Source: Candidatus Bathyarchaeota archaeon
Lineage (GTDB): Archaea; Thermoproteota; Bathyarchaeia; Bathyarchaeales; Bathycorpusculaceae
Direction of reading: 5' to 3'
Assembly (NCBI GenBank): GCA_963768425.1
Contig: CAVYHV010000014.1
Location: 256,001 to 320,000 of the forward strand
Length of the DNA: 64,000 nucleotides
The position numbers and the translations under genes were made by a program. Positions within the stretch are counted from its first letter, which is position 1, and each line of letters begins with the position of its first letter. The notes under the pieces were generated by a model, which worked only from the letters and a program-made list of their open reading frames with translations, made no database searches and was not told the DNA's origin. Positions 28,900 through 45,727 of the stretch are shown here, in pieces.

Positions 28900-29202
28900 C
28901 TAAGGTTGCTTCCTTGACTTTTGAAGCTCTCTTAATCTTTCATCCCTGGATGGGCAAGACGCATATGCTTTAGGATCCGCGAAAAGAAAACAGCAGCTGC
29001 CTAGACTGCAAAGCCTGCCTGTTGAGCCTTCCCAAATCAAAGCACCAACAAACTCACAGCTACCGACGGGCGCAGGAGCATCTGAAACAATATGAGCTTT
29101 GATCTCAGGTTGAGAGTCTTTAGGCTTCCAAAAAGGCTGCCATCTATTCACAGTCTCAGATGGATAATCAGACAAACTGTAATCTTCAGCCAAGGTAACC
29201 AC
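28900..29202 (-). CDS. Hypothetical Cys-containing protein
   Basis: Tightly packed in the backbone operon. Confidence 0.5.
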   Translation of the reverse strand: MVTLAEDYSLSDYPSETVNRWQPFWKPKDSQPEIKAHIVSDAPAPVGSCEFVGALIWEGSTGRLCSLGSCCFLFADPKAYASCPSRDERLRELQKSRKQP

Positions 29203-29343
29203 CCGCTCTTAGCCAGAAGGCAGCAAAGTTCCTGGCTTCAAACTGATTTCTCCAACACTGCAAACTATGATCAGGGCGGCAAAGCAGATCAACCCGCAAG
29301 CAATTGTTGGGCAGCCAACGCAAGGGTTAACCTTTAAGCCCTT

Positions 29344-29490
29344 CATGAGGAAGCCTCCGTTTCAATTTCATGAAAAGCACGCTTCGTGACTTCCTCAAGC
29401 TCATGAAAATTAGCATCAAAATTAAGAGCTAAACCGCCAAGGAAAATCCGCATCATAACTGTAGCAGCCTCAATCTGTTTCCGATTCAAC
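29344..29490 (-). CDS. Small hypothetical protein (48 aa)
   Basis: TTG start after GGAGGGT; MNRKQIEAATVMMRIFLGG... Confidence 0.45.
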
Positions 29491-29586
29491 TAAGAACCCT
29501 CCTAGCTGCTACAACAAAAAAGAAAAAAGGGAAGGAAGCTACGGAGAAACGAGACGAAGATGGCGATACATCGCCAAGAGATGGGA

Positions 29587-29609
29587 GTTCAAGTCCCACC
29601 CCGGCACCA
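29587..29609 (+). repeat. attR-like copy of the tRNA-Leu 3' end
   Basis: GTTCAAGTCCCACCCCGGCACCA. Confidence 0.9.
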
Positions 29610-29652
29610 CTATGGTAAAACATACGGAGGGTTTACGAAGGGTGATTCTGTA

Positions 29653-29724
29653 TCAGAATTTTCGTTTTCTGAATAGTTTGTGTCAGTCGAAATCGCAGAC
29701 AAAGTCAAAACCTGCGTCTACTAT
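29653..29724 (-). pseudogene. Integrase C-terminal relic 1
   Basis: IVDAGFDFVCDFD*HKLFRKRKF versus the intact IEAGFEFVCDFEGHKLFRKRK. Confidence 0.85.
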
Positions 29725-29922
29725 CTCAAACTCTAAGCCGATAATTTCGTATCCTGCAACATAGACCTTCCAAGATGTTGCTGTCATATATTATCAGGCA
29801 TCGAAAAACCGCTAACTTGAGGGGTACCGCCCTATAGGTACCTGTGTACCTAAGGTTTGGTCCAGAAAGTTTGACTAATCCAGTCAAGAAAGTTTTACGA
29901 ACAGCCTTTTATAGTATGGAGT

Positions 29923-30432
29923 TTGCTTAAAGTTGCTATGAATAGAAGAAACAAGCATTTAGCCTTGATTGGTTTAGTGTTTGCAATGGCAGCAGTTATC
30001 ATGGTTATTATTTTCGTTCCACCCTTACTTGAAGCTTCAGCATCCAACAATTTTGAATCTAAAATTCTGCCATATTTATCGGGAATAGACGGTTGGGATG
30101 GAGACAACATATATTTCACTTACTACAATAGCACTCATTACCCGACGACTTCACCTTACAACGAAGTGAATAATTATACTCCCACTCATTATTTGACATC
30201 CTCTGAAATCGCCATTCTAAATAATTATACTCAGGTTTCTCCATCATCATTTCTGAATTATCTCAAAAATGCCACTAACACTATAGGAGGAGCTACAGAC
30301 TATGGAAGAGATAGGTTCCTTCTCAACATGACAAGAGTTGAAAACAGTTTCTATATGCAATATGTTAATTATGATTATGGAGGATTTGGAGGCTTTCCTT
30401 CTATCAATGTTCGATGCGTCATACATTATTAA
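29923..30432 (+). CDS. Membrane-anchored or secreted hypothetical protein
   Basis: N-terminal TM helix; Asn/Tyr/Thr-rich. Confidence 0.65.
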   Translation: MLKVAMNRRNKHLALIGLVFAMAAVIMVIIFVPPLLEASASNNFESKILPYLSGIDGWDGDNIYFTYYNSTHYPTTSPYNEVNNYTPTHYLTSSEIAILNNYTQVSPSSFLNYLKNATNTIGGATDYGRDRFLLNMTRVENSFYMQYVNYDYGGFGGFPSINVRCVIHY

Positions 30433-30697
30433 GCATCGAAAAACCATAGCTTAGCCAAACGCAAGTTTTGAAGTTTAGTTTGAACTCACATAAGAATCCA
30501 TTAACTAATGCCAGTTCTTGTCGTTTAGCATGGAAAGACAGCTATTAACAGTTTAAGTCCCTTCTAAAATAATATTTGGATTTACAAGATAGCAAAGATT
30601 CCTTCAGGCTAATGAATAGTTTTTCTTTGAAAGATTGGATTTAGAGCTCACTTAAACTCTCTTGCCGCTCTTCTGCTCGTTTTACCATTAAAATAAG

Positions 30698-30964
30698 TTA
30701 GGGTTTTCTTATGTCTGGATAGGGTTTATACACAATACAATAGCCGTCTTTGCACATGAGCGCTAAATTATGTTGTTTAGCAACATTTTCCACGCATGAT
30801 GTTAAGAATTCGTCAGAGTTTACTTGAATATGTATTTGGTAAGTATTTGATAGAGCATCGTTTCCTTTAGGCGGCAAGAGTTTTAGGGATTTGCCTTCGA
30901 TGAATTGGCACTGTTCAAGAATTTGTTTGATGACATTGACGGCTTGTTCTCTATTCATATCCAA
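30698..30964 (-). CDS. Small hypothetical protein
   Basis: MNREQAVNVIKQI...YQIHI...IVYKP; resembles the divergent neighbour. Confidence 0.65.
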   Translation of the reverse strand: MDMNREQAVNVIKQILEQCQFIEGKSLKLLPPKGNDALSNTYQIHIQVNSDEFLTSCVENVAKQHNLALMCKDGYCIVYKPYPDIRKP

Positions 30965-31160
30965 GTTCGGTACTTTACGTTCTTAAAACTATTTGTGGGC
31001 AACCAAAAGATACAACAAACAGCCATATTCTTGCTTTTTTGCTCTCTTGGCTCCAGCCAGTTCATGAAAATAGCTTACTTCTTTAACCGTTATGTTTTCG
31101 CATGTAGTTGGTATAAACTTATTAGTATGTACATCCCCAAAGGGATTGGGGAACGTACAC

Positions 31161-31373
31161 TTGGAACGCAAAGAAGCGGTTGCCCTATTGAAAGAATTAG
31201 GCGATGAGCGATTACTTCAACCGTTTATGGTTATTATCCAACAAAGACCACCTAATGGATGCCAATTGCAAATTAAAGGATTATATGACCAAAAAGAAAT
31301 CGAAAGTTTCCTAAAGAATAGAGGTTTCTCATACGAAGAGCATCTGGATTATCTCCTAATTTTTAAACCCTGA
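31161..31373 (+). CDS. Small hypothetical protein, probable paralogue of 30698-30964
   Basis: LERKEAVALLKEL...CQLQI...LLIFKP. Confidence 0.55.
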   Translation: MERKEAVALLKELGDERLLQPFMVIIQQRPPNGCQLQIKGLYDQKEIESFLKNRGFSYEEHLDYLLIFKP

Positions 31374-31702
31374 AAAAGGGAAAAGGAGAATAGTTAGCTT
31401 TTGTCAGTCGGTTCAGCTTTAACTTTTTCGCAAGTGAAAGTTGACTGCTATTTAACACTATTTCTCTTTTGATAAGCTGGAGATTTTGGTGATAGGTTTG
31501 TCCGAATGATTGAAGAATTTGCAGTAGCTGAAATGATTGCAAAAAAAGCCGTTGCAAAGGGCTCTTTCTTCTTCCATTATTACACGTGTAATAAATTTGG
31601 ACTTTTCTTCCATGAATTCATCTATAAACTTGTTACAAAAAAAGAATTTGATGAAAGTTGGGATATGCTTGCTTATTTTTTGGTTTGGCTAAGAGACAAT
31701 TT

Positions 31703-31876
31703 TTAGAGTTTTTCTGGGGCGCAGAGATTTGCTGCTTTGGCAGCAGTTCGCATGCATCCTTTGCAGATGTATTTCGCATCTTTCACAAGTGGCTTTATCT
31801 TTTCTATGGGTACTTTATCCTCTACCATTTTGCAGAGATGGGTTTCATGACCCGGATGAGGTTGTGCCTTTGACAA
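31703..31876 (-). CDS. Small metal-binding protein (57 aa, not in ORF track)
   Basis: HPGHETHLC...YICKGCMRTA....NLCAP; AGGTG RBS. Confidence 0.7.
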   Translation of the reverse strand: MSKAQPHPGHETHLCKMVEDKVPIEKIKPLVKDAKYICKGCMRTAAKAANLCAPEKL

Positions 31877-32370
31877 TATTTACACCTGACCCACTGATTG
31901 GAATGATGTTAAATATAGTATTGTGATTGTGTCTAAACAGCAACATAATATTTCAGGCGAGTTAGAGCTTTTCACCAAGTTGATGTGAAATAAGATTTAA
32001 AAATCCAAACATTTGATATGGTCCTCGCTGGAACAAAAAATGGACGATGAAGTGGTAATAATCGAGGTTAAACGAAGACTTATGCTGAATACTTGAGTGC
32101 TCCTTTTCAAAGACTCAGTTTTAGAGCTTACTATAACACGGAAATGTACGTGCCAAGATGTGCTTCATGTTCTTGCTCAAGTAATGTTTCGATACCTCAG
32201 GAAAACTGTTATAAAACTCCCCAAGTTCTTCTTCTGAAAATACTATATTCTTTTTCTTAGACATTTGATTACCTCAAGAAAAGGTATGTAAAAGTTCAAC
32301 TTTAGAGTTGGTTTGTACCAAGTCTGTTAGACCTAAAAAAGAGGCTTTTTAAAATTAGCCGAGAAAAAAA

Positions 32371-32409
32371 GGGAATGCAAGTGAAGTCTCCACTGGAAGG
32401 AGCGTTCAA
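32371..32409 (+). repeat. ~30-bp att-arm site, copy 1
   Basis: GGGAATGCAAGTGAAGTCTCCACTGGAAGGAGCGTTCAA. Confidence 0.85.
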
Positions 32410-32566
32410 TTTGATTCTCCACCCAAAACACCCGGGGATTGGATTTCAACCCTTAGCAGGAAGTTCTATTGCGAATTTTGTTCCCTTTCCTTGAACTTTC
32501 AAGGCTTGCTTTCCTGATGATTCTGACGCAGATGGTCTTCTATTATTCGATGACCCGCGCGCGCTA

Positions 32567-33421
32567 TCAGTAAGATGGCGTTAAAATCAGCGTATCTTTA
32601 ATATTCAGAATCTGCTTTATTTTCACTATCTCTTCGTCATTAAGACCTAAGTTTTTTACTGACGTTAACTCTCCGAAAATTTTTGAGTGAGAAAATCTCT
32701 CAATTTTAAACCCTTCTTCCTCAAAAAATCTTTTTATTTCAGCCTCATCGGCGAAAACATTGTTTCCGCATAAAATATTGTACTGATCCTGTTTCATACG
32801 ATTTTTAGCAAAATTATCTGCTGATTGACTCATTTTTTTTAGTGTGTCCTTGCTATAAACCTCGTTAGTAATCCAACAGCCAGAATATTCGCTGAATATT
32901 TTATGGATGTTTTTAGCTAAGGTATGTTTTTCTTCCATTGAAAAATACGGTAAAAGTCCTTCGGTGATAACGGCAAGAGATTTGTCTTTTTTGAAAAAAG
33001 CAACAGCCTTCGATAAACTCTCCATGTCAAGAGCATTTGCTGCTTGAAAGTGGAGATTCGGATGTGATTCATTTGACTGAGCAAGAATTGACTGAGCAAT
33101 TTCCTTTTCTTCTTCCAGAATTTGAGGCAAATCAGTTGCTACATATACGACATCGGAATTTCTTGTCATCGATAAACCACGAGGAGACAGTCCAGCGGCA
33201 ATCTCTAAAACTTGAGTTATGCCATGTTCTTTGATGATTTTGTCAGTGACTTTATACCGTGCTTCCCAGATAGGAGATCCCCGAATATCCCCAGTCTGTT
33301 CTTCGAAGGATTGTTTAGCGTTACTTTTAATTGCAATCTCTTTTGCAAAGGGAATGTCAGTAAACGTTCTTGAATAAGCTACAAGTTTAGCAGTTGGGCT
33401 AATTTTCTCAAATTCTTTCAT
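32567..33421 (-). CDS. SAM-dependent methyltransferase (LCM/O-methyltransferase-like)
   Basis: SPTAKLVAY.R, LEIAAGLSPRG, DLP, ITEGLLPY. Confidence 0.85.
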   Translation of the reverse strand: MKEFEKISPTAKLVAYSRTFTDIPFAKEIAIKSNAKQSFEEQTGDIRGSPIWEARYKVTDKIIKEHGITQVLEIAAGLSPRGLSMTRNSDVVYVATDLPQILEEEKEIAQSILAQSNESHPNLHFQAANALDMESLSKAVAFFKKDKSLAVITEGLLPYFSMEEKHTLAKNIHKIFSEYSGCWITNEVYSKDTLKKMSQSADNFAKNRMKQDQYNILCGNNVFADEAEIKRFFEEEGFKIERFSHSKIFGELTSVKNLGLNDEEIVKIKQILNIKDTLILTPSY

Positions 33422-33536
33422 TTTATATCTTCCGAACTTTTTGTCTTTAACTAAATGGCGGCATGTCTTATTAATTTTATAGCGAGCTTATTCGCTGTTG
33501 CGATAATTATTTATTTAACAGAATGATGTAAAACGT

Positions 33537-34265
33537 ATGCGCAGGTTAGTTATAGAGTGGTCAATTAACGAAGCAATTAAAAGAATTAAGGATAGAGAAA
33601 TCGAGAAACTCAAAGAGTACGGAGAGCAGGTCGATTCAGGACTAGTCAAAAAAGCTGAATCGACTGAATTGAACAGGCTTGAGACAATTAAAAAAATCAA
33701 ATCATTTGAGGTGCTTCACATTTTAAGATTTAATTCCTCTGAAACGGCTGCAATATTCAGATTAGAGTCCAAAGATAACTCTTTGGAAGTTGAAGAACTC
33801 TTAAAAGTACTCCTTCAAAATCTCAACGTCGAATATCAGCTTTTAGAACAGGATAGAGACGCTTGCATCTATCTTATCAAGGGAAAAACGGTTCAGTCAA
33901 ACTCAGGAACACTTATCAGAAGAGGGATGTACCCTATGTTGCCTTTTGCGGTTAGGGATGGAAAAGTCAGAGTTACTCTTGTTGGAGATAATGACCAGGT
34001 TAAAGAGTTCCTTGAAAATAGGCGGGTTAACTACAAGGTGCTATCGCTTACGGATGCCAAATTTTCACCCAATTCACCGATCAGTCGCTTGACTGAAAAG
34101 CAGCAGGAAGCGATCTCTTTGGCTTTTAGGTTTGGCTACTTTGATACACCCAGAAAAGTAAGCGCAGATGAGTTGGCAGCAAAGCTTGGTCTTTCGAGTT
34201 CTACGTTAGCGGTTCATTTGAGAAGAGCGGAACGGCGACTACTCGCTGAAATGTTAAACGAGTAA
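33537..34265 (+). CDS. Regulator with C-terminal HTH_10 (Bat-type) domain
   Basis: LTEKQQEAISLAFRFGYFDTPRK...HLRRAE. Confidence 0.9.
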   Translation: MRRLVIEWSINEAIKRIKDREIEKLKEYGEQVDSGLVKKAESTELNRLETIKKIKSFEVLHILRFNSSETAAIFRLESKDNSLEVEELLKVLLQNLNVEYQLLEQDRDACIYLIKGKTVQSNSGTLIRRGMYPMLPFAVRDGKVRVTLVGDNDQVKEFLENRRVNYKVLSLTDAKFSPNSPISRLTEKQQEAISLAFRFGYFDTPRKVSADELAAKLGLSSSTLAVHLRRAERRLLAEMLNE

Positions 34266-34375
34266 GAACAGCCGTCACTACGTTTGATAGCTATAAGTAA
34301 AGAATAGGAGCAGTTACCTGCCAATTATGATTTTCTTAAGGAGATTTGAGAAGTAGGAGAATACTGATTGACAAA

Positions 34376-34834
34376 TTATATGGATTGCATCAACATCAAA
34401 GCAAACTCTTCAGCATGTTTGAGGTCGTCTGAGTTTGGTCTATCTTTCTTAGTGCCACCCACCAGTTTTAATGGACCCCACGTGTTGAATCCAGCACAAT
34501 TAAATTCGTCAGCAATTGTATAGCCTTTTGATTGGAGTTTTTCCCTAAGAAGTGAGTGGAATTTGGGTGCGTTTTCGGTATTTGCAGATGTGGAGAAGAT
34601 GAATGCTTTCTTGTTGATTTGCTGTGGGAGCTTTTCTGCTAGGTCTAACAAGTCTTTGTGATGTTTCCAAAAGTAAATCCCTGAACCAAAGCCGACAAGG
34701 TCATACTGATTAAGTTCTTCTAAGTTAATTTGTTGCGGAGTCTTTATTTCTGCATTAATCACTTTCGCTATAACTTCAGCTATTTTCTGGGTGTTGTTGT
34801 GATGATATGAAACCAAGATTATCAAAGACCTCAT
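34376..34834 (-). CDS. Flavodoxin family protein
   Basis: SYHHNNTQKIA, GFGSGIY, FSTS. Confidence 0.9.
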   Translation of the reverse strand: MRSLIILVSYHHNNTQKIAEVIAKVINAEIKTPQQINLEELNQYDLVGFGSGIYFWKHHKDLLDLAEKLPQQINKKAFIFSTSANTENAPKFHSLLREKLQSKGYTIADEFNCAGFNTWGPLKLVGGTKKDRPNSDDLKHAEEFALMLMQSI

Positions 34835-35036
34835 GAAGTACTCAACCTGCCAACTTCACTGTTGGCGTTACCATTAACTTCTTTTTTTAACTAATAATGT
34901 ATTGCGTTGACTTTATCAGTAGAAAGGAGAAGCCAAAACAAACAGAATTATTGCGACATAAGCGATTAAAGAGCTATTAAAATAGTATATTCAAAGGGTT
35001 AGGAACTTCGCTATTTAATCAACCACCCAGGAAAAT

Positions 35037-35092
35037 GGGAATGCGGGTGATGTCTCCACTGGATGGAGCGTTCAAGTCCCACCCCTGCACCA
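35037..35092 (+). repeat. att-arm site copy 2 fused to a tRNA-Leu 3'-end copy
   Basis: GGGAATGCGGGTGATGTCTCCACTGGATGGAGC-GTTCAAGTCCCACCCCTGCACCA. Confidence 0.9.
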
Positions 35093-35155
35093 CTATGTTG
35101 AAAACCACTGGAAGTTTGTCCCGGCAATGAATTTTGTTTGTTTTGGATTTTTCAT

Positions 35156-35350
35156 TTATTTTCTCTTCCTAAATAGTTTATGAACGTCGAAATCGCAGAC
35201 AAAATCAAATCCTGCATCTATTGGAAGGCTTCTTCAGCTTTGGTCTTTAGTTACTTTTGAAACAAAGTCTGTCTGGTCGACAAATAGGGATTCTTTGAGT
35301 TGCATGTAAAGGACCTATTTTTGATGTTTTGTGATCTAACTCCTGCATGA
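35156..35350 (-). pseudogene. Integrase C-terminal relic 2
   Basis: YMQLKESLFVDQTDFVSKV...IDAGFDFVCDFDVHKLFRKRK with indels. Confidence 0.85.
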
Positions 35351-35365
35351 CTTAAAGGATATCCC

Positions 35366-36604
35366 TCAAAAAATTTGAGGAGCTGAGTTAATCGTGAAAG
35401 ACACTTTTGACAAATACACCATAAAGCAAAGGCTAAGAGTGAAAGGTCGCTTTTGGGTATTTTTATTCTTGGTTTTCGAGGGCTCTTTGAAGGCCTGCAA
35501 TTTGTTGCCTAGCAGGGTTATGGCAAGCAAGATTGCTCCGATAGCGGTTAATGCTACGCCTGCAATGTAGGCAAAGTTGTTACTATATGTCCAGCTGTAA
35601 GTGACTATGTAGCTGACGTTTTTGCTATATGAGTCGATGTTTGAGAGAATTAAGTACACGGTGGTTGGGGGGCCACTGTTAACAAAGTCTACGCCAGTTT
35701 GTCCAGATGAAGCGTTAATCTTAGGTATGCTCCAGCTTCGAATATCCGTAATAGTGCCATTGCCCCATTGCATGAAGGTTGAGTTTTCTCCGTTCCCGAA
35801 TGCTTGTATGGTGCCTTTGTCAGAGCTAATTTGGATGCGGTAGATGCCAGCCGAGCCTTCAACATAGGCTATGGAATTGTAATTTTTAGCTGGCACGTTA
35901 ACTGAGCCATGGGAAAGCGTAACTTGCGCATTAACAGGGCTTGAATAAGTATTTGCCAAGTAAACGCCAAAGACAAGCATTATCACGCAAACAACCAGCA
36001 CAATCGCCTTTTTGCGCGTCATCTTAAAGTTTTTCAAGGAAGCCCTATGTTTCACCGCGAAAAAAGCTGCAACTGCCAGAATTACAACTAAACTTGCCGC
36101 GGTAATCATCGTTGCCAAGTTTAAACCCGATTGATCCATCACCAACGTTTCCTCGTAAACTGCTACGTTAACTTGCTGGCTAATGTTTCTCGAGTTCCAA
36201 AACACTATATTTGCAATTTGAGTGTTTGAACTGCTGCTTACGTCATAAGGGTATGCTTGGCATGGAACAGGCAAGTTATAAAAATCGCCGTTTCCTGAAG
36301 CTCCATCCCAGGACACCGCAAATTGACCTTTCAGCCATTTTTGCAAGTTCGCGTCCGTGAGAGCACTGGAAAATACCGTGTTTGATGCATCGTTAGCGTA
36401 TACCACAATGTAGTAGGAGCCTGATTCGTTGAGAGAGAAGCTTTTGTAAGTTGTTGAGTTTTCAGGCAAAGAAAATGTTTCAGAAGATATGCATGTTAAC
36501 CGATGCTGCGGAACCGAATATGTGTTCTCCATGGATAATCCTACAAAAAGCGCCGCTACAGCAATAACCGCAACTAAGACGCCTAATACTCTACCGTGAC
36601 GCAT
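35366..36604 (-). CDS. Membrane protein with two extracellular beta-rich domains
   Basis: Four TM segments flanking two similar Ser/Asn/Tyr-rich domains. Confidence 0.75.
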   Translation of the reverse strand: MRHGRVLGVLVAVIAVAALFVGLSMENTYSVPQHRLTCISSETFSLPENSTTYKSFSLNESGSYYIVVYANDASNTVFSSALTDANLQKWLKGQFAVSWDGASGNGDFYNLPVPCQAYPYDVSSSSNTQIANIVFWNSRNISQQVNVAVYEETLVMDQSGLNLATMITAASLVVILAVAAFFAVKHRASLKNFKMTRKKAIVLVVCVIMLVFGVYLANTYSSPVNAQVTLSHGSVNVPAKNYNSIAYVEGSAGIYRIQISSDKGTIQAFGNGENSTFMQWGNGTITDIRSWSIPKINASSGQTGVDFVNSGPPTTVYLILSNIDSYSKNVSYIVTYSWTYSNNFAYIAGVALTAIGAILLAITLLGNKLQAFKEPSKTKNKNTQKRPFTLSLCFMVYLSKVSFTINSAPQIF

Positions 36605-36720
36605 TTACGTTCTAAATGAGCACTTGACAAATTAAGGTAAAACCCTTTGTGCGTCCAAAAAGTTAAGTCAACACCTTAAAACCTTCTCCAACGAGATTTT
36701 TATTGAAAAGGCAAAACGAT

Positions 36721-37365
36721 ATGAGCCAAGCCGAAAATGTCGCAGAAGGTTTTGTAGCAGTAGCAAGCGCAATATGGCTGCTCTTATGCGCCTGGGTTTC
36801 ATCAACAATCAATCTGTGGCTGGGATTAGGCGCCTTTCTTTTTTTAGCTATCCCTTTCGCAGGACGCGTCATACTGCTTCTAAAAAACCTCAAAGTAAAA
36901 ACAACTATCCAAACTCGCGTTAAACAAGCCAAAAACGGTCTGATGAGTTTGCAAGGGTTTGCCTTTGCATGTTGGTTTTTCGATGTTATCTCAACAGTTT
37001 TTGTTTTGAACATTCAGCGGTCAGGAGATGAGCTAAACATTTTAGGCTGGCCCTACAGCGCGTTAGGAGCCTTGGCATTTTATGTTCCTGTTACTGTTGC
37101 AGCTTACTACCTGCTGTTCAAGGTTAAATCAAAAGAGTCATTTTACGCAACAGCGGCACTAACCGCCGTATCCATATTCATCGGCTTGATGAACCTGAAC
37201 GCTGGCCTGTCAAATCTTACGCAGCTCTACACTTTCAATCTATCAATGGAAGATTTCGCCATTTTTGGAATTTGGCTTGCCATCATGGCTTCATTAAGCG
37301 CTTTTAACGTTTTAGCAATAACTAAAAGAGCAAAGCCCTTTGCAAAAGCAGAAGTTAACTGGTAG
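36721..37365 (+). CDS. Integral membrane hypothetical protein
   Basis: About 6 TM helices; D..ST...E.N motif. Confidence 0.7.
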   Translation: MSQAENVAEGFVAVASAIWLLLCAWVSSTINLWLGLGAFLFLAIPFAGRVILLLKNLKVKTTIQTRVKQAKNGLMSLQGFAFACWFFDVISTVFVLNIQRSGDELNILGWPYSALGALAFYVPVTVAAYYLLFKVKSKESFYATAALTAVSIFIGLMNLNAGLSNLTQLYTFNLSMEDFAIFGIWLAIMASLSAFNVLAITKRAKPFAKAEVNW

Positions 37366-37439
37366 GTCGGCTAGTTCGCAAACAATAGCCCATATGCCGC
37401 ATACTATGTGGATTAAGTATAACATTTTTAAGTTGCATT

Positions 37440-37976
37440 TTGGGAAATGGAGAAAAGTCTATGAGCTTCAATCGCAAATTAAAAACAAGAGATGATCCGT
37501 GTTTGATATGGAAAATTCTTGTGGGCGTAGATGGTTCTGAATCTTCGGAAAAGGCTTTGGATTACGCTCTTGAAATTGCTGATAAGTTTTCCGCCTCGAT
37601 TCTGATACTTAACGTTTTTCAGTCGCCTCCGGAAATTGGAAATCAACTTAGCATGATACAGCAGTCTTCATCGCCTGGATATTCCCAAGAGTCAATAGAT
37701 TACCAGCCAATTATCAGGGAATTCAGAAAGGTGCATGAGGCAGTTTTGTCCAGAGCCACTGAAAAAGCAAAAAAATCAAAGCCCATGCTTAAAATCACCG
37801 CCGAACTCAAGGAAGGAGACCCATCATCACAGATAGTTGAGACTGCTGCAAACGGCGAGTTTGACTTAATAGTTATTGGTCACAGGGGGGACAGTCAGAT
37901 CAGAGAACTCTTCCTAGGCAGCACAAGCGAAAGAGTCGCCCACCGAGCAACATGCGCCGTACTAATTGCCAAATGA
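37440..37976 (+). CDS. Universal stress protein
   Basis: ILVGVDGSESS, IGHRG...LGSTSERV. Confidence 0.93.
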   Translation: MGNGEKSMSFNRKLKTRDDPCLIWKILVGVDGSESSEKALDYALEIADKFSASILILNVFQSPPEIGNQLSMIQQSSSPGYSQESIDYQPIIREFRKVHEAVLSRATEKAKKSKPMLKITAELKEGDPSSQIVETAANGEFDLIVIGHRGDSQIRELFLGSTSERVAHRATCAVLIAK

Positions 37977-38140
37977 AGCTATCAACTCGCCAAATCACGC
38001 GCCGCTCATTATTTTTATTGGACGTCTGAATAAATTTAAACAAAATCAGAATTATTCCCTTTTCAAGCCATTATCATAGCGAATAGCTTGGAAAGACTTT
38101 ACAAAAAGCTAATAATAAGTTTGTAGGGTAATCAGAACTC

Positions 38141-39028
38141 ATGAATGTTCAGATTAGAAATTTCGTAGAATCCGATTTACCATTTCTCTTGGAACTGCTG
38201 AAAGACCCAGATTCCGAACAGAGACTTCTCTACACGCATTATGGAAACGGCAATTTTTCCTCTTGGCTCAGAGAACGTAGGATTAAGGTTTTGATAGCTG
38301 AAAACAACTGCGGAATAATTGGTTCCGTTGCTTATAATGATGGGTTTTGGGGAGAAGAAATTGAGTGGCTTGTTACCTGCGGAAACCCGGATCGAAAACT
38401 TGTGGGGGATATGTTGATTAGAGGAGCTGAAAAGTATGTAAAAAAAGATACGGTTTTTACTTCGGTCATCGCTGGAAGCTCCAGAGTTGAAGAATGGGTT
38501 CAACGAGGCTATTGCCCAAATGGAGGACTGTATTATATGATTACAAAACTTTCAGGCTTGAAATCCACCCCTAAAATCCCCGAAGGCGCCCTGTTACGAA
38601 GCCTAAAGCCAAAAGAAGAAAACAAATTCGTTCAACTTGTAAACGCTGGATTTGGGTGGGAAAGGGTCAAGTTGGGTGATATTGAAAAGTGGAAAACTGA
38701 AAGTCCGCCTTTCGATGAAGAATGGATTTATGTTGCTGAGAGTGACGGAAAACTTGTTTCTGTTGTTGTCGCAAAACCTGACACAGGCTATAATCGGTTT
38801 TTCAATGCAAACAGAGGATATTTGGGCCCAGCAGCAACACTTCCTGAGTATCGGGGCAAGAATCTTGCATCTGCACTTACGGTGCATGCAATGAATTCTC
38901 TGTTTAAACGAGGAATAGATTCTGTGTGTTTATTCACTAATGAAACAAATGCTTCGTCAATAAAATTATTGCAAAAGATTGGTTTTCAAATTGGTTTTCA
39001 TTGGAAGTTTATGCTGAAGCATTTCTGA
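38141..39028 (+). CDS. Tandem GNAT acetyltransferase
   Basis: TLPEYRGKNLA, N.SSIKLLQKIGF. Confidence 0.88.
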   Translation: MNVQIRNFVESDLPFLLELLKDPDSEQRLLYTHYGNGNFSSWLRERRIKVLIAENNCGIIGSVAYNDGFWGEEIEWLVTCGNPDRKLVGDMLIRGAEKYVKKDTVFTSVIAGSSRVEEWVQRGYCPNGGLYYMITKLSGLKSTPKIPEGALLRSLKPKEENKFVQLVNAGFGWERVKLGDIEKWKTESPPFDEEWIYVAESDGKLVSVVVAKPDTGYNRFFNANRGYLGPAATLPEYRGKNLASALTVHAMNSLFKRGIDSVCLFTNETNASSIKLLQKIGFQIGFHWKFMLKHF

Positions 39029-39124
39029 CAACCTTGTGCTTGCTACATGGTAAGAGCTTCGGGCAGCTCCGAATCCTTTTATGTAAAAGCATTCTAACGT
39101 AGACAGATCTAAAGGGGAGTTTAC

Positions 39125-39457
39125 TTGGAATCAATGTATGTACGTGTTGCTGATAAGTCAGAGATAGAAATGGGCAAGATGAAAAAGGTCGCATTAGATG
39201 ACAAAGAGATTCTTATTGCCAATGTAAATGGGAAATATTATGCTGTCGATAACACGTGCACACACTTCGGAGGCAACCTTTCAGAAGGCGTCTTAGAAGG
39301 CAACGTTGTAACGTGCCCGAATCATCGAGCTAAATTTGATGTAACTACGGGAAAAGTGGTTTCCGCCCCTGCTGAAACCCTCGGACGCCCAGACATAGAG
39401 GATTTGCAGACGCATTCGGCGAAGGTTGAAGACCAATACATAATGGTCAAAGTTTAG
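39125..39457 (+). CDS. Rieske-type ferredoxin
   Basis: CTH...CPNH motif. Confidence 0.92.
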   Translation: MESMYVRVADKSEIEMGKMKKVALDDKEILIANVNGKYYAVDNTCTHFGGNLSEGVLEGNVVTCPNHRAKFDVTTGKVVSAPAETLGRPDIEDLQTHSAKVEDQYIMVKV

Positions 39458-39465
39458 CAAAAGAA

Positions 39466-39503
39466 GAATTACAGGTGATGTTTCCACTGGAGGGAGCGTT
39501 CAA
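39466..39503 (+). repeat. att-arm site, copy 3
   Basis: GAATTACAGGTGATGTTTCCACTGGAGGGAGCGTTCAA. Confidence 0.85.
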
Positions 39504-39576
39504 TGCATTCCCCTACTGGATTTGCCAGAGGATTACTTAGTTATTCTTAAAACATAGAAAATGGAGATTTGTCAAG

Positions 39577-39747
39577 TCATTTAGCTTTTAGAAGTTCATC
39601 CATTAAGGTAAGTAAGAAGTATCCTTGTTGTTTATCTAACTTTGTGCATGATAGGCTATGAAGTAATTGATAGACTTCGACACCATATTTCTCTTTGAGT
39701 TGTTTCCCATTATGTTCTATAATCTCAGTGCTTGTATTTTTACTCAT
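39577..39747 (-). CDS. Small hypothetical protein (56 aa)
   Basis: GTGAGGGT RBS; MSKNTSTEIIEHNGKQLKEKYG... Confidence 0.45.
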   Translation of the reverse strand: MSKNTSTEIIEHNGKQLKEKYGVEVYQLLHSLSCTKLDKQQGYFLLTLMDELLKAK

Positions 39748-40199
39748 TAAAGACCCTCACTTCTTCCATTCTTCGATTCAGATTTAAGACTTTTCTTTAT
39801 GAAAGCTTTCCCCCACACATAAGACATTCAAGTGGGAACTTATAGCGCGTTTGTAAAAAAACATTTGAGAGCTCCGTTGGATTGAGGCTTCAAAAAACCT
39901 GCGTAACATGCATCCGTATATGGGTTATGTGATTTAGCACATTGACTAAGCTCCGCCTTTGCCAGACCCTAAGGCGTATATTCTTCAATTCAGGATTCAA
40001 GATTTTGCTAACCGCTATGGACTTTGTTGATACAGAATTTCGGCTAAGATTTCTTTGCGTCTCTCTTTGCGGTTCTTCTTTTGGTTCTTCATGCCTAATA
40101 GAGGAATAATTTAGCATTAAAATAAAAACTTTATTCATTCTGGCTAATGAACAACGCTGAGAACCAAGCTTTAACCATGATAAAGAAAGGTGTTTTGTT

Positions 40200-40229
40200 G
40201 ATGATGTCTCCAATGGAGCGAACGTTCAA
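40200..40229 (+). repeat. att-arm site, copy 4 (more diverged)
   Basis: GATGATGTCTCCAATGGAGCGAACGTTCAA. Confidence 0.7.
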
Positions 40230-40338
40230 AGCAACCTCTATTCTAAAAGGACCGGGAGTTTGGCTGGCACCCTTCATGAGCTACATCATTGCTTTGTCTT
40301 TTACATTTGGCTGCTTCTTTCCTTTTTTAAAAATTTAA

Positions 40339-41849
40339 TCATGTTTCCATTCCGACACACTTGTTACTTATACATTGTATAATGGGGGAAATCGCCTCTT
40401 TGTTTGTCCAATCAGTTTCTTCATGCAATAGTATCAATTGTTCTTGAGATTTCTTGTCAATTCTAAACCAAGAATTAAATCTAAGTTTACTCATTGGACC
40501 TAAGTTCATAAGCCACTTGTCGTTGCAGTCGAGCTTGTTGTAATCATATGCGCCGGGCAGAGGAAAGCAGATGATATTTTTCCTCAAGTTCGCCGGCAGG
40601 CTTGTCTCTATAACTTGGTACTGTTCCAGCGTTACCAAAGATGCTCCAGTCGAAACGAACATAACCACTTTTTTCGTGCTTAAAACACCCCAGTTATTTT
40701 TTAGGAAGTCGATCCCTTTGATTTTCCCAATGTGAACGGACGATCCGTAGATCACTGTAGAATAACGTTTCAATGAGGCAGTATCAAATTCAGAAATGTC
40801 CAGAGCCTTTGTCTTAAGTTCTTCTGCTATCCATTCAGCGTAACGCTTGGTTGCTCCATACTTCGACTTGTAAATGACGACTACATTATCTGATCCGGGT
40901 TTTTTGGCTTTGTCGCATTCTTCTTTTCTATCCAGACTTTCGTTCTTGTGACTCTGGCTTTGGCTGTGGAGTTTATCCTTTATTAAATAGAAGAGACCGC
41001 CGTAAGCTAATAGTCCCAAAACGGGAAAAACAATTATTCCTGCTGAGCCAGATCCTGTCGTTACTGCTGGATCCTTATTGATTACTTCTATGATTGCACT
41101 TGCGTTAACAGCAGTGCCCAACGTGATAAAGAATCCATAGAAAAGCAGCACTAATGGGTAAGCCTTTTTCGGTTTAGACAATAGAAGCAAGAGAGCTAAG
41201 AAACCCATCGGAATCGTGATTCCAAGATCCAGAAACTTTACCATCCACCATGAAGTAGGTGTTGCAAGATAGTCGCCTGCTGAAGTGTTGCCGGTTGAAA
41301 TGACCTGAGCAAGCTGCGAAACCCACATGAAACCGAACATTAACAGAAAAATCGCCATCGTAGCAACGTAGATTCGTAGTCCTTTCACTTTGAAATTGGG
41401 GGCGTCTTTACTTGTGAATCGTGTGAAGCTTCCAACTAGTAAAATTAAACCGCCTATTGTCAATGTTAAGAACAAGCCGCAAAATGCCTCGGAGTTGCCC
41501 GTATAAGCCGGGTTTCCCCATTCTTGTCCTATGCCGTATTCTAATCCAGAGTACATCAGCATAACTGGCGTCAGTACCAAAAAGTACTTGGAGCTGTCCT
41601 TTTTTAGGAGGACCAAAATTCCACCAACGATTAAAACTGGCGCCAAAACAATCAGATTAGTTATGTCAAAGGCTTGTGTTTGCCAATTCCCAGAAAGCGA
41701 CGTTCTATAGTGAATAATGTTAAACACCGCTGGTCCTGAAGCGCTATCAATATGAGATCAGCTGCACAAGCAAGAGCGCTAATGCCAACTACAATAGGCG
41801 GAATTAACTGTTCATTATCCGATTCAGTTACGTCTGCCATTAAACTCAC
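40339..41849 (-). CDS. Multi-pass membrane protein fused to a HemG-like flavodoxin (frameshift at ~41735)
   Basis: About 8 TM helices followed by IYKSKYGATKRYAEWIAEEL. Confidence 0.75.
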
Positions 41850-42109
41850 ACCTGCCTCGTATTGCGAATTCCTTTTTTGCAGAGTTTATTTAGCTCATTT
41901 TCAGCGATGTCAATCCTCAAAATGCCCTTTTCCCCGACAATTTCAAGGATTACACCTTCAACAAACTCTGAGTGATGTAACTCTCCAATAGTACCTTCGA
42001 CTTGGACGCTTTCATTGAAGTTGCTCGATAAGGTGACATTCTTGAGGTCGGCTTTGGATTTGAGTTGAATGGAGAAGGACCGCTCCTTCGCAGTCTTACC
42101 GTGTTTCAT
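41846..42109 (-). CDS. Small hypothetical protein
   Basis: GGAGG RBS; VEGTIG...GILRID; overlaps the next gene. Confidence 0.65.
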   Translation of the reverse strand: MKHGKTAKERSFSIQLKSKADLKNVTLSSNFNESVQVEGTIGELHHSEFVEGVILEIVGEKGILRIDIAENELNKLCKKGIRNTRQV

Positions 42110-42186
42110 TCCGTTTTTTCCTCCGAGTGACTAAGAGGCGGAAAAAGAGATTAGTCTTATTTGACAATCATGTGTAAGAATAAACA

Positions 42187-42969
42187 TTGATGTTTAGGTA
42201 CAGGAGAGAACAAAGCTTGGAAAATGGCCAAGGCGTTCAAAACTTATTTTTTAATCTCACTAGTGAAAGCAGACTTCAAATATTGTACAAACTAAAAAAC
42301 CAACATCTGAAAATGAATGATATAGCGCGGGAATTGGATTTGACTGCTACCGAAACTACTAGGCAACTGCAACGCCTAAAAGAGGCACGACTGGTTGAGA
42401 GGCAACCTGAAGGCACATATGCCCTTACAGAATATTGCATGCTCGTATTGCAGCTTTCTCCCGCCTTTGAGTTTGCTTACAAACACAAAAACTATTTTCT
42501 AACCCGGGATATTTGGCGAATTCCGTACGAATTTCTAAATCGAATAAGCGAGCTATCATCAGCCAGTTTATCCATCAACGTAGCAGATTCTATTAACCGT
42601 GGCGAGAAAATGGTTAAAGAAGCTGAAGAATACGTATGGACCCTTCGAGACAAATCCTTAGACACGATGGGATCATTAATGCTTGAACAATATGGAAAAA
42701 ACGTTAAGTCATTTAGATTTATGTTCGCCGAAAATTTGCGTTCTCCTTATAGGCCATCCCATGGGCGACCAGAAGTTGAGGAGAGAACACTTGCAAAAAT
42801 CCCTGCAATTATAGTTTGCACGGAAAAGGAAGCGGCAGTATGTCTGCTTTCAACTGATGGTCGAGCGGACTATTCGGGCTTCTTTGGCACAGACCCCTAT
42901 TTCAAGAAATGGGTAAAGGACCTCTTTCTTTATTTCTGGAACATTGGAAAAAGGGTTTTCCCAACCTAA
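42187..42969 (+). CDS. ArsR-HTH / DUF1724 (FilR1-like) regulator
   Basis: SESRLQIL...RQLQRL..ARLV; C-terminal TEKEA...DG..D...W..DLF.YFW. Confidence 0.8.
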   Translation: MMFRYRREQSLENGQGVQNLFFNLTSESRLQILYKLKNQHLKMNDIARELDLTATETTRQLQRLKEARLVERQPEGTYALTEYCMLVLQLSPAFEFAYKHKNYFLTRDIWRIPYEFLNRISELSSASLSINVADSINRGEKMVKEAEEYVWTLRDKSLDTMGSLMLEQYGKNVKSFRFMFAENLRSPYRPSHGRPEVEERTLAKIPAIIVCTEKEAAVCLLSTDGRADYSGFFGTDPYFKKWVKDLFLYFWNIGKRVFPT

Positions 42970-43198
42970 TATTGATCAACCTGTTGATGGTAATCATGAA
43001 GTGCTCGCTGCCTCCCAATTTTTCTTGGAAAAGAAAAAAGCGAAGATTGGCCGCGAAGAAACTTACAGTAACACTGCTTCTTTCTGTGGTGTTCAAAGCG
43101 TTTCCCAGCCTGAACTGCCATATGATTTGAGTTCAACCCTAAATTTCAAGATGCTTGGAAAGAAAAAGAAGGGAAGAAACAAAAGCGAAGTTGGTTGT

Positions 43199-43483
43199 CT
43201 ATTGTTTTTTGTGCTCTTTGAGAACGGTCATCGGTGACGTGCTAGTGTCGGCGATACCCGGCATGGCTCGTAAGACCTCGCCGATGAAGTGAAGGCTATT
43301 TTCGTTGCTGTCAGCTTTGAAGAAAATGACGAAATCCCAGTATCCATATAAGCTCCATGAAGACTCAATCATCACTCCTTTCATTGGTTCGGTAGGCATA
43401 TTTTTGAACGCTTCCCAGAACTCGCCGCCTTTTCCTGAAATCGTTTTGATTAAAACTTGATATTTCATCATGCTTTTTTCCAA
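43199..43483 (-). CDS. Stand-alone Lrp/AsnC ligand-binding (RAM) domain protein
   Basis: LYGYWDFVI...LRAMPGI..TST. Confidence 0.7.
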   Translation of the reverse strand: MEKSMMKYQVLIKTISGKGGEFWEAFKNMPTEPMKGVMIESSWSLYGYWDFVIFFKADSNENSLHFIGEVLRAMPGIADTSTSPMTVLKEHKKQ

Positions 43484-44100
43484 TTAAAACACCATGCTTA
43501 TTTTTGTAAAGACTTGCCTTTAAGACTCTGTGACTGCATAACCGCAACAACAACCGCCCAAGGCCCACGCCAACTTCCCCTTCGACACCAAAGAACTTTT
43601 GCAAAACTCCAGAGTCCCCTTCTGCAAACTACTTCGGTAAAGTTTCATGCTATCCCCTTGGTTTAAGCAAGGCTGACAATGTCCAGTTGGCTGATGGTTT
43701 TATGTTTTTCAGCGTAGATCCAACTGTCGGCCAAGCACTTGTTGCATCAGACTGAGACAACATTGTCTTAAATCATTTTGCACAATGATTAGTTAGCAAG
43801 GGAAAGTGGAACTACTAAGAGCCAACGTGTTGAGCGGGTCTGGCAGCTAACATAAAACAAGGCGCCCCCAAACTTTTGCGCCTGCCAATGTTAGCACGCG
43901 GCTAAATCCGCCCAACCAACATTTTTGCCCCTAACTCAAAATCCCTTTTTAAACAACCTGATTGAACCCTTAAATCAACAGCCAACCCCAAACATTCTAC
44001 GTCAACACAACCAAACCAGCTATCTCCTTTTCGGAGAACCCGCAAAAGGCCACTTTTCGAGTCGACGACAAGTCAATCATTCCCAAATCCGCAAAGCCAA

Positions 44101-44180
44101 AGGGAGTCAAATAGAGTCGAATTGGGTCAAAATGGGTCATTAGGAGTCATAACAAGTCAAATAGAGTCAAATGGAGTCGC
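44101..44180. repeat. Eight degenerate 10-bp tandem repeats
   Basis: GTC at positions 6-8 of every 10-mer; consensus ATNGAGTCAA. Confidence 0.85.
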
Positions 44181-44266
44181 AACCTGCAAATGATTCAAGC
44201 TCCTCCACAAGGAAGCAGCCCAAAACACAAACAAAAAATTTTGCATTAAGAAAATGCTTTTTGGGT

Positions 44267-44749
44267 TTAAGCTAGGTAGACGGTTACGTTTCCATCTTTG
44301 TCTTTTGCTGCTCGAACCTTGATTTTTCTCGGAGGTTTCTCGATGCCTCTGTTCCAGATTCTCTGGTTAAGCTCCTGGCTTATTATGAGTCTAGGTAACT
44401 CTTCTTCTTCCTCTTCTTCGGTAACCTTCATCTCTAGTTTCATGTGCTTGGTGATGAAAATCTTGATCAATTGCATCGCTCGGGAAGCACGCTTATTCGG
44501 CGGCCTAACCAACGCTCTCCCCAATGGGATCGTGTAGGTTCGCTCTTCAACGATTTCTTCTTCTTCCTTCTTCTTGCGTTTAGGTTTAGCTTCCTCTTCT
44601 TCAGCAACAGCTTCCTCAGGCTTCGCTTCAGCCGTCGGCTCCCCAACTACTTCGGGAACTTGTTCCTCAACGGTTTCTTCTTCAGCAAGCGGCGGCAACT
44701 CTTCTTGTTCGGTGACTGTCTGCGTTTCTTTTTTGTCTTCACTAATCAT
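44267..44749 (-). CDS. rpl31e: 50S ribosomal protein L31e with acidic N-terminal extension
   Basis: ERTYTIPL, KRASRA, IWNRGIEKPPRKIKV. Confidence 0.93.
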   Translation of the reverse strand: MISEDKKETQTVTEQEELPPLAEEETVEEQVPEVVGEPTAEAKPEEAVAEEEEAKPKRKKKEEEEIVEERTYTIPLGRALVRPPNKRASRAMQLIKIFITKHMKLEMKVTEEEEEEELPRLIISQELNQRIWNRGIEKPPRKIKVRAAKDKDGNVTVYLA

Positions 44750-44764
44750 CTACATCTACGTCTC

Positions 44765-44923
44765 CTATGCCTTTATCTTCCTTGTTCGCCAATTGCGCCT
44801 TTGCTTAGGGTTATTCCTAACTTTACCGTCAGTTCGGGCAATTACCCATGTGGGAACAGACGTTGCGATCTTGCCAGCTTTGGCTAATCGAAGCTTCTTG
44901 GCTGTTGGTTTAACTCGCGCCAT
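44765..44923 (-). CDS. rpl39e: 50S ribosomal protein L39e (not in ORF track)
   Basis: [16 protein letters not shown]...VPTWV..RT...RRNWRT. Confidence 0.93.
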
Positions 44924-44927
44924 ACTT

Positions 44928-45257
44928 TCATATCCTTCTAATTGTTGGTTCTCGCTTCCGTGATTGAAGCTGAATTAATATCTGTTTAAGCTGAGCATCC
45001 GACAACGGAATAGGCAACTTCCCTGTCTGCGCCATTTGAATCAGCTGCATCTCAATCTGCTCCGCAAAGTCCTGCTTAACCATCTTTAGGTTGTTTAGCC
45101 TCTGCTGAGCCTCAGGCGCCAATATCTTTCTTAACAGCGCCTGTTTCTGAGCATCTATCTGCGCTTCTTCTTGGCTTTGTCTTTGCTCGTCACTTACGCG
45201 ACGCTGCATTGACGATAACTTTCGTCTACGGATTTGGTCAAGCTCGTCATCCGACAT
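44928..45257 (-). CDS. PDCD5-like DNA-binding protein
   Basis: [11 protein letters not shown]...[15 protein letters not shown]; conserved position beside rps19e. Confidence 0.9.
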
Positions 45258-45262
45258 TGCGT

Positions 45263-45727
45263 CTATTCGCCTTGATACTTCTTCAGCGCAGGGATAGTCT
45301 TAACTACTTCTTTATGCAAGTCTCCAGCGACCTCTTGAAGCAACTTACGACCCTTAGGAGTCATCCGTCTACCCTGAGGCTTAGTGGTTTGAACCAAACC
45401 TGCAGTTTCAAGCTGCTGAAGAATCTTGCGAATGTTACTTCCACCGGCTTTAGTGGCATGCGATTTTTTAACGCCGTTATTTTTTCTTCCACCATAATCA
45501 GCCCGCAGCTTCTCAAGCCCGATTGGACCATGAACATAGACTTTCCGGAGAACAGACGCGCTTCTGGTGTACCACCAATTTGGGTTTTGCGGCTGTTTTT
45601 CAACGTGGGTACCTGTCTTAGCGAAGGCTGCCCAAGGAAGAGGCTGGACTTCATCAACGTTTTCCCTAAGATACTTTGCTAAACGATCGATGAACTTTGA
45701 AGATGGAACATCATGAGGAGTAGTCAA
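45263..45727 (-). CDS. rps19e: 30S ribosomal protein S19e
   Basis: KTG.H.E..P..WWYTR.AS, YGGRK, RKILQQLE.AG. Confidence 0.96.
   Translation of the reverse strand: MTTPHDVPSSKFIDRLAKYLRENVDEVQPLPWAAFAKTGTHVEKQPQNPNWWYTRSASVLRKVYVHGPIGLEKLRADYGGRKNNGVKKSHATKAGGSNIRKILQQLETAGLVQTTKPQGRRMTPKGRKLLQEVAGDLHKEVVKTIPALKKYQGE

Follow-up and report, generated by a model that had tools for sequence, protein, structure and literature searches.

What has stacked some 39 kb of foreign DNA behind a single tRNA gene of an uncultured archaeon? The locus that raises this question lies in a metagenome-assembled genome (MAG) of Candidatus Bathyarchaeota from peat soil (label G000; 2.96 Mb in 33 contigs); we analysed a stretch of 64,000 nucleotides, C14:256001-320000, hereafter the window. 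Downstream of its tRNA-Leu(UAA) gene, blocks of genes alternate with sites that carry the T-loop hexamer GTTCAA, an arrangement that a preliminary description of the sequence had likened in function to an integron. Our reading, to which we give a probability of roughly 60%, is that the locus is an accretion array of Bathyarchaeia tyrosine-integrase elements anchored on tRNA-Leu(UAA), with cassette-like blocks that lack an integrase; its junctions are very probably att-type sites left behind by site-specific recombination. Peat, soil and sediment harbour abundant, uncultured Bathyarchaeia, and the routes by which these archaea exchange accessory genes are scarcely described.

Junctions ending in GTTCAA

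The island spans ~4339-43096, ~39 kb downstream of the tRNA gene, and its seven junctions, all on the plus strand, lie between 4333 and 43096 (Table 1). Because the AsnC-type gene now found beyond the last junction stands close behind tRNA-Leu in some relatives, the foreign stretch reaches from the tRNA to ~43100; chromosomal homology with relatives resumes at ~43150, and at 43735 in G035, the closest of that set. The true right edge is a fifth, degenerate junction at 43091-43096 (J6), whose right arm opens directly past GTTCAA with AGCGTTTCCCAGCC...GATTTGAGTTCAACCC. The left arm of J6 has a weak similarity to that of J1, confined to an A/G-rich stretch in an alignment of which two of the four rows were poorly chosen.

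The 28-nucleotide motif from which the preliminary description started is real: written in IUPAC code, it matches four times in the window, always on the plus strand and ending at 32409, 35075, 39503 and 40229, against an expectation of 0 from 100 shuffles. The extent of ~30 bp given to the site was too small; the motif is the 3′ half of a conserved element-side arm of ~50 nucleotides (P arm) that abuts GTTCAA and has the consensus AAAAAAAAGGGnAATGCGGGTGATGTCTCCACTGGAnGGAGGGTTCAA, that is, AAAAAAAGGGnAATGCGGGTGAnnTCTCCAyTGGAnGGAGsGTTCAA. Over 44 copies, mean column identity is 73%, rising above 90% in the boxes GGTGA..TCTCCA and GTTCAA, and conservation falls immediately past GTTCAA. The sites also contain a GGTGAnnTCTCCA box and CCAsTGGrGG repeats, and CACTGG recurs in the opposite arm at ~4371 and ~35106, as had been reported. 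Nor is the motif scattered over the genome, which had been named as the finding that would count against a recombination site: at up to two mismatches the whole 2.96-Mb assembly holds no extra copy and at three mismatches one (C6:122505), which runs into a tRNA-Leu-like 3′ end, making five copies at three mismatches or fewer.

A search of the same assembly with a profile of the P arm (nhmmer, E<=1) gave 19 matches: four at this locus, eight on contig C17, two on C6 and five singles. This distribution does not fit a miniature inverted-repeat transposable element (MITE) or dispersed regulatory repeat, as the strict motif is confined to this locus and one other site, and 14 of the 19 profile matches fall in three same-strand clusters with tRNA-type 3′ ends. 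Two further candidates for the P arm were discarded: a degenerate tRNA 5′ half or tRNA-like fold, since GCGGGTG is constant whatever the tRNA target, and a coding start (ATG CGG GTG ...), since the variable positions are not synonymous.

Right of GTTCAA the junctions are of two types. In type-a the core continues into a tRNA 3′ end, that of tRNA-Leu(UAA) here and of other tRNAs in other genomes; in type-b it continues into a conserved non-tRNA arm, approximately T(T/G)C(G)ATTCCCC(A)CC and then CC(A/G)GAGG(G)TTTGAGTTCAACCC, which holds a second GTTCAA ~45 nucleotides past the first. The box C.GG.GGTTTG of the type-b arm recurs in the P′ arms, which separate a tRNA core from the stop codon of an integrase gene, and the composite site of P arm, GTTCAA and right arm measures ~110 nucleotides. 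Three motif copies had been said to diverge right after the hexamer; this does not hold for those ending at 32409 and 40229, which enter the conserved type-b arm, and the arm at 39503 also has relatives in other genomes. The tRNA-Leu 3′ copies, GTTCAAGTCCCACCCC(G/T)GCACCA at 29587-29609 and 35070-35092, had been recognised correctly, as had the integrase C-terminal stub after each of them and, by Pfam, the block genes for LCM methyltransferase, HTH_10 regulator, flavodoxin, USP, GNAT and Rieske proteins. Blocks hold one to five genes each, on both strands, and the two stubs are all that remains of an integrase in them; Pfam found no integrase past 5734 in the window's array.

Table 1 Features of the tRNA-Leu(UAA) array, with positions in the window
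Feature	Position	Strand	Evidence or remark
tRNA-Leu(UAA) gene, attL side	4234-4356	+	Read from the sequence; T-loop GTTCAA at 4333-4338
P′ arm of element 1, box CACTGGGGGTTTGCGCTGGCGATG	4357-4423	+	Similar arms after tRNA copies at 29610 and 35093, and beside integrase homologues in other MAGs
Intact tyrosine integrase, 436 aa, N-terminal zinc ribbon	4424-5734	-	Pfam PF00589, E=3e-15; PHROG integrase families
Element 1, newest insertion, ~25.2 kb	4339-29592		Absent from G104; ParB-like gene, ATPase, insertion sequence, duplicated PQQ-propeller/AsnC modules
J1: type-1 P arm (GGCGAT-AC-ATCGCC), GTTCAA 29587-29592, tRNA-Leu 3′ copy	29505-29609	+	
Integrase C-terminal stub, 23 aa	29659-29727	-	tblastn, 74% identity to the 4424-5734 integrase
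J2 (type-b): P arm 32358-32409, non-tRNA right arm 32410-32452	32358-32452	+	
Degenerate histidine-kinase 3′-end stub, directly after the J2 type-b arm	32453-32520	-	Intact PAS kinase in the same position in G122
Block B cargo: LCM-type methyltransferase (-), HTH_10 regulator (+), flavodoxin (-)	32567-34834		Pfam
J3 (type-a): P arm 35024-35075, tRNA-Leu 3′ copy 35070-35092, P′ arm 35093-35158	35024-35158	+	
Integrase C-terminal stub, 52 aa	35159-35314	-	tblastn, 62% identity to the 4424-5734 integrase
Block C cargo: 412-aa unknown protein, USP, GNAT, Rieske ferredoxin	35366-39457		Pfam; 93-95% identical to G104
J4 (type-b)	39452-39540	+	Also in G104
J5 (type-b, degenerate)	40178-40275	+	
Block E cargo: 462-aa flavodoxin-domain protein, small reading frame, ArsR-type regulator	40339-42969		Pfam
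J6, right island edge: A-rich left arm of doubtful type, GTTCAA 43091-43096, type-b-like right arm ending GAGTTCAACCC	43047-43140	+	
AsnC-type gene, ancestral chromosomal neighbour of the tRNA	43199-43483	-	0.4-12 kb after tRNA-Leu in 5/20 relatives' loci

The anchoring tRNA-Leu(UAA) gene contains an intron-like insertion of ~32 nucleotides between D arm and anticodon stem; with this insertion counted in, the gene is ~90% conserved within the genus, and it adjoins integrase homologues in other MAGs. The sequence of the insertion varies between MAGs with constant flanks, so it is probably a non-canonical intron. ARAGORN, which lists 34 tRNAs for the whole G000 assembly, reported none in the window and missed this gene even with its intron search. 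The integrase beside it is a generic tyrosine recombinase that falls below every NCBIfam cut-off (integron integrase TIGR02249, 50.1 bits against 265; NF011946, 31.4 against 435). Its relatives in genome contigs all come from Bathyarchaeota or Bathyarchaeia MAGs (25/25). Homologues stand next to tRNA-Leu(UAA), to a tRNA with the anticodon GCA and to further tRNAs. The zinc ribbon (residues 46-82) resembles the zinc-binding domain at the N terminus of IS1/IS1595 and IS256 transposases, with scores just under the cut-offs. An SSV-type element was ruled out, the integrase being intact with its stop codon 68 nucleotides past the tRNA 3′ end; so was a virus origin, with 0 matches of the exact arm pattern in viral contigs and no virus hallmark gene among 24 open reading frames (ORFs) compared with PHROGs.

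Element 1 is a case of insertion at the tRNA core. In the sister genome G104 (core identity 96-98% over 44267-50311), a stretch 95% identical to window 4357-1154, comprising the tRNA and the flank upstream of it, is fused to the sequence of 29587-29683, and this direct joining means that element 1 is a clean insertion at the tRNA core. It thus has all the marks of a tRNA-gene island: a regenerated tRNA with an integrase beside it, a displaced 3′ copy at 29587-29609 and an empty site in G104. We dropped the difference of four against five Cs between element 1's two cores as a marker of the crossover; all four runs of peat metagenomes that we compared show an extra C at 29598, so the difference may be an assembly slip. 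Together with three genes that Pfam shows split into adjacent ORFs, namely an MFS transporter (18246-19393), a polyprenyl synthetase (46333-47363) and an FAD-linked oxidase (47407-48899), the extra C hints at homopolymer assembly errors rather than real pseudogenes.

Element 1 contains a 4-kb tandem duplication (9828-13856 and 13916-17935, 80% identity), each duplicate encoding a PQQ-propeller/Ig-domain surface protein and two AsnC-type regulators, with many paralogues genome-wide, and an insertion sequence with a DDE transposase at 20784-22247, copies of which, at 73-93% identity, lie on C15, C8, C19 and C6. A repeat of ~120 bp occupies 29796-29912, and one of ~100 bp, with dozens of copies on many contigs, 44100-44250, directly upstream of the L31e gene; between the flank of the AsnC gene and that L31e gene, G104 has ~11 kb (G104:C25:3926-14968) that the window lacks (compare 43932-44267).

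Joins in relatives and arrays across the genus

In two junction comparisons with relatives, at J6 and J3, the change falls at the core. At J6 the left arms of the window and G104 are unrelated and identity begins at GTTCAA 43091; in the slot of the window's 2.9-kb block E, G104 has a 0.9-kb block with an O-methyltransferase. At J3, G089, whose core is 78% identical, matches the window at 93% over 33316-35075, up to GTTCAA; beyond this point the window has the tRNA core, whereas G089 enters a type-b arm. The four peat runs, which were compared as contigs, not reads, and of which the best contain at most 23% of the sequence words, supply a further join: in 4/4 a type-2 P arm is joined to the J6 right arm, with only six letters common at 35070/43091. 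In 2/4 runs other letters start exactly left of 29587, and in another MAG those letters adjoin a 94%-identical integrase fragment. Window bins 40371-42755 are uncovered by the peat contigs, a gap that carries no evidential weight.

The methyltransferase and HTH_10 genes of block B, with or without the flavodoxin gene, are 91-97% identical in G089, G021, G122, G103 and G076; the core genes of the first four are 78-82% identical to those of the window, and for G076 the figure is 71%, in a core region next to the tRNA. In G122, G021 and G103, too, the block directly follows a site. The first 70 nucleotides of the window's block B are the degenerate 3′ end of a kinase gene where G122 has intact PAS kinases, which means that blocks also decay and are rebuilt by ordinary events.

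Scanning related genomes with a profile had been suggested as a check on the preliminary description. When 120 genomes of the genus were scanned with R1, a sequence-only profile of the P arm, 101 of them had matches at E<=0.01, 903 in all and 17 in G000, usually in same-strand arrays. G000 itself holds a second array on C17 (5552-32429), with eight plus-strand sites in 27 kb, each followed by the tRNA 3′ end ATCCCCCC(C)AGTCCA; the matching tRNA gene (anticodon loop CTTGTAC) lies mid-array at ~18.1 kb, with three sites upstream of the gene. PF00589 has seven matches across G000, five of them over the cut-off, and none on C17.

In 34 fetched loci R1 marks 49 sites, of which two are duplicates of one locus; about 20 of the 47 distinct sites are type-b, and the rest carry 3′ ends of several tRNAs, sometimes mixed in one array. 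Thirteen loci with at least two same-strand sites yield 28 intervals of 314-10495 bp (median 1384 bp); 12 contain exactly one ORF of at least 70 aa (opposite to the site strand in eight cases, on the same strand in four), and three contain none. No integrase was found between the sites: none of the 71 ORFs in the 28 intervals matches PF00589 at E<=1e-5, and tblastn with the window integrase gave no match inside the 26 of 28 intervals that it covered. The cargo is accessory and includes PAS histidine kinases, several methyltransferases, flavin/nitro reductases, GNAT, a histone-fold protein, a PQQ propeller, PIN/MazE, PemK and AbiEii. In G109 the tRNA is followed by an integrase gene, then by a type-2 P arm that ends in a type-b junction, and then by the next block. 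Arrays of short blocks without an integrase are common in the genus, and species have at least one block in common at an identity far above that of the core genes.

How the array may have been built

A family of integrative elements that target the tRNA T-loop, with crossover in GTTCAA, would account for this architecture. Repeated integration at or beside the tRNA would stack elements, the 25-kb element 1 being the newest; older entries have lost their integrase, leaving two stubs, and their junctions persist as P arm-GTTCAA-X. As only ~6 bp are common to all partners, integrases of the family may be able to recombine any two such sites. Recombination between sites of different descent could then give type-b and mixed-tRNA junctions, and blocks without an integrase may be exchanged, being excised, captured and reshuffled in trans, with ordinary deletions presumably eroding the array in parallel. 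The mixed tRNA 3′ ends of single arrays are what exchange within a common T-loop core predicts. At six of the seven junctions a leftward gene or stub has its stop codon 44-110 nucleotides past GTTCAA (integrase three times, then the kinase stub, the flavodoxin-domain protein and AsnC), so that cargo genes occupy the place and direction of the integrase in complete elements.

That the array is anchored on the tRNA and built by site-specific recombination, as had been proposed, is supported by the motif statistics, the absence of element 1 from G104 and the joins at J6 and J3. Active mobilisation of the integrase-less blocks today is a tentative suggestion, somewhat less probable than its opposite. 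The boldest form of the idea is a Bathyarchaeia cassette platform on the tRNA T-loop, evolved independently of integrons, in which integrases acting in trans capture, stack, swap and spread blocks between species and the ~900 sites are a working exchange system, not fossils; we regard it as conceivable but doubtful.

Several observations weigh against an accretion array of this kind. At J5 the identity between window and G104 ends within the arm, past TCTCCA and ~17 nucleotides before GTTCAA, and G104 also diverges from the window at ~29683, within the integrase stub and away from any site. A gap of 1025 bp in G104 (34398-35422), bounded by an 8-bp microhomology, removes the flavodoxin gene, J3 and the stub, and is the common form in 4/4 peat runs; the two integrase stubs and the kinase stub likewise make some blocks deletion remnants. 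Differences from the sister strain therefore come to two at sites, one inside an arm and two elsewhere, and the expectation that strain breakpoints would coincide with GTTCAA stood for J6, J3, the peat contigs and element 1, but failed for J5 and two ordinary indels. Two further copies of the block B genes occur in G000 without a nearby site, and the comparisons made do not explain the origin of the type-b arm. The peat contigs contain no circular or excised form, although in contigs the absence of circle joints is not evidence.

The integrase, too, is hard to tie to the sites. The J1 arm, at element 1's own right end, is not matched by the P-arm profile, being a different arm, which suggests that the resident integrase may not serve the motif sites; nothing observed supports its action on them, the agency claimed in the preliminary description. 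Across the 120 genomes, with an integrase scored as present at E<=1e-30 (100 genomes), sites and integrase are not associated (both in 84, sites only in 17, integrase only in 16, neither in 3), and no integrase passes that threshold in G031, G012 and G124, genomes of 90-98% completeness with 11-13 sites each; the table is blurred by MAG incompleteness and by the thresholds, and lends no support to dependence.

Much of this would be expected of a passive graveyard, in which only complete integrase-bearing elements integrate, always at the tRNA, integrase-less blocks are deletion remnants, and mosaics arise by horizontal transfer and homologous recombination in arms or genes. The stubs at 29659-29727 and 35159-35314 and that of the kinase, the microhomology deletion across J3 in G104 and all four peat runs, the J5 breakpoint inside a conserved arm and the persistence of arrays in 17 genomes without a detectable integrase of the family all fit it. 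For archaeal elements, moreover, PMC8371274 and PMC6563490 already describe integration in tandem, loss of the integrase and the swapping of modules through homologous recombination. Decayed tandem islands, the alternative already raised in the preliminary description, are thus partly true as well, given the stubs, the J5 break and the indels.

Other observations are not easily covered in this way. Not one of the 71 interval ORFs is an integrase, and 12 single-ORF intervals have both sites intact where random deletion should usually have taken a site too; partners at J6 and J3 are unrelated on one side, which excludes homology as the guide of a join at GTTCAA; a single array can carry the 3′ ends of different tRNAs, which integration at the local tRNA alone cannot yield; and the arm is conserved (73% mean column identity, boxes above 90%, 44 copies) across species with ~78% core identity. 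A passive graveyard therefore covers stubs and indels, and accounts with difficulty for single-gene intervals, unrelated joins and arm conservation; as the whole explanation we consider it unlikely.

It is far less probable that the sites are gene-end elements, either a 3′ untranslated region or terminator on the minus strand or a small RNA or MITE-like repeat, with the link to integration secondary. Such an element would explain the leftward stop codons at six of seven window junctions, the conserved A-run that opens the arm, a T-run on the other strand, and the orientation of the gene opposite to the site strand in eight of the 12 single-ORF blocks. Against it, no consensus RNA structure appeared on either strand: RNAalifold gave 0 pairs for 20 type-b units on the plus strand and five weak pairs, with no compensatory change, for 16 on the minus strand. 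A complementarity between GGGAATGC and GCATTCCC with one matching indel (G109), seen by eye, was lost at the consensus level. Rfam has no family for the sites; at gathering thresholds the whole window gave nothing beyond a 16S fragment (1-855, the window starting inside an archaeal 16S gene), and at E<=10 the stretch 29000-44500 gave three chance-level matches, none at a site. The sites, furthermore, are not dispersed and stand in same-strand arrays beside tRNA genes or tRNA 3′ fragments; the direct fusion of the arm with 3′ ends of tRNAs is the configuration that an attR or hybrid site should have, and element 1 is a bona fide integration at the same core.

Membership in the canonical archaeal integrons (IntI with attC cassettes) is refuted: they exist in Archaea and the arrays here likewise hold short blocks with accessory cargo, but every testable feature of membership failed, with an integrase at 50 bits against the cut-off of 265 for the integron-integrase family, no conserved hairpin at the sites, several genes per block on both strands, and sites fused to tRNA 3′ ends. 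The functional likeness to integrons drawn in the preliminary description survives in so far as integrase-less blocks are the norm in related arrays, and is weakened by these failures and by the missing association of sites with integrase.

Relation to known systems

The literature on Bathyarchaeia, as represented in the accessible parts of PMC10848311 and PMC11697101, describes a few viruses, proviruses and islands; in that literature, with supplementary tables outside its scope, we found no account of the P arm, type-b junctions or such arrays. This locus and its relatives suggest a frequent site-specific route by which small adaptive modules (sensor kinases, methyltransferases, redox proteins, toxin-antitoxin pairs) are stacked and shared at tRNA genes. 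Were the blocks indeed mobilised in trans, the problem addressed by integrons would have been solved a second time, by independent evolution, and the case would show how an integrase system that targets tRNA genes can turn into one of cassettes once its att identity contracts to the T-loop core. For MAGs of this group the conserved P arm also offers a practical means of mapping the flexible genome.

Among tRNA-gene islands, the T-loop forms one sublocation class for integrase crossover. Element 1 fits such islands fully, with its regenerated tRNA and integrase, displaced 3′ fragment and empty site in a relative; islands made by tyrosine integrases at tRNA and tmRNA genes are collected in the Islander database (accessible part of PMC4383910). 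The rest of the array differs from them in consisting of integrase-less blocks, with junctions that lack a displaced tRNA fragment. The ssrA-linked island arrays of Dehalococcoides reportedly arise, like the array here, from recurrent site-specific insertions into the 3′ end of a gene for a small RNA, and also carry adaptive cargo; each of those islands is said to encode an integrase of its own and to be marked by a complete direct repeat of the target. Archaeal mobile elements in tandem, to the extent that the available parts of PMC6563490 and PMC8371274 describe them, likewise re-use an integration site, lose integrase genes after integration and exchange modules; there, in contrast, a site holds few full-size elements, with no genus-wide arrays of ~1-kb blocks having a common arm and no non-tRNA partner.

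Integrons have been reported in Archaea, in 75 MAGs from nine phyla according to the accessible portion of PMC9668308. The resemblance lies in an anchored, one-directional stack of short accessory blocks, toxin-antitoxin pairs among them, each bounded by a recombination site, and in arrays that also occur without a nearby integrase, like clusters of attC sites lacking integron-integrases (CALINs). Unlike integrons, the arrays described here have no IntI-type integrase and no folded attC-like palindrome; their sites combine a sequence-conserved arm with tRNA-derived parts, their genes lie on both strands with apparent promoters of their own, and their anchor is a tRNA gene, not attI.

The tandem accretion arrays formed by streptococcal integrative and conjugative or mobilisable elements (ICE/IME) and their neighbours include cis-mobilisable elements (CIMEs). 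These arrays likewise have several att sites in direct orientation at one target and integrase-less segments flanked by att sites, and they grow via a resident att site. The differences are an archaeal host, a tRNA T-loop target, no conjugation genes seen here, much smaller blocks (median 1.4 kb, often one gene), and many junctions that keep only the 6-bp core and a non-tRNA right arm, with one arm serving several tRNA targets. In two features of a CIME-type array the locus agrees: it has at least three direct att-type sites at one target, and the segments between them are without an integrase.

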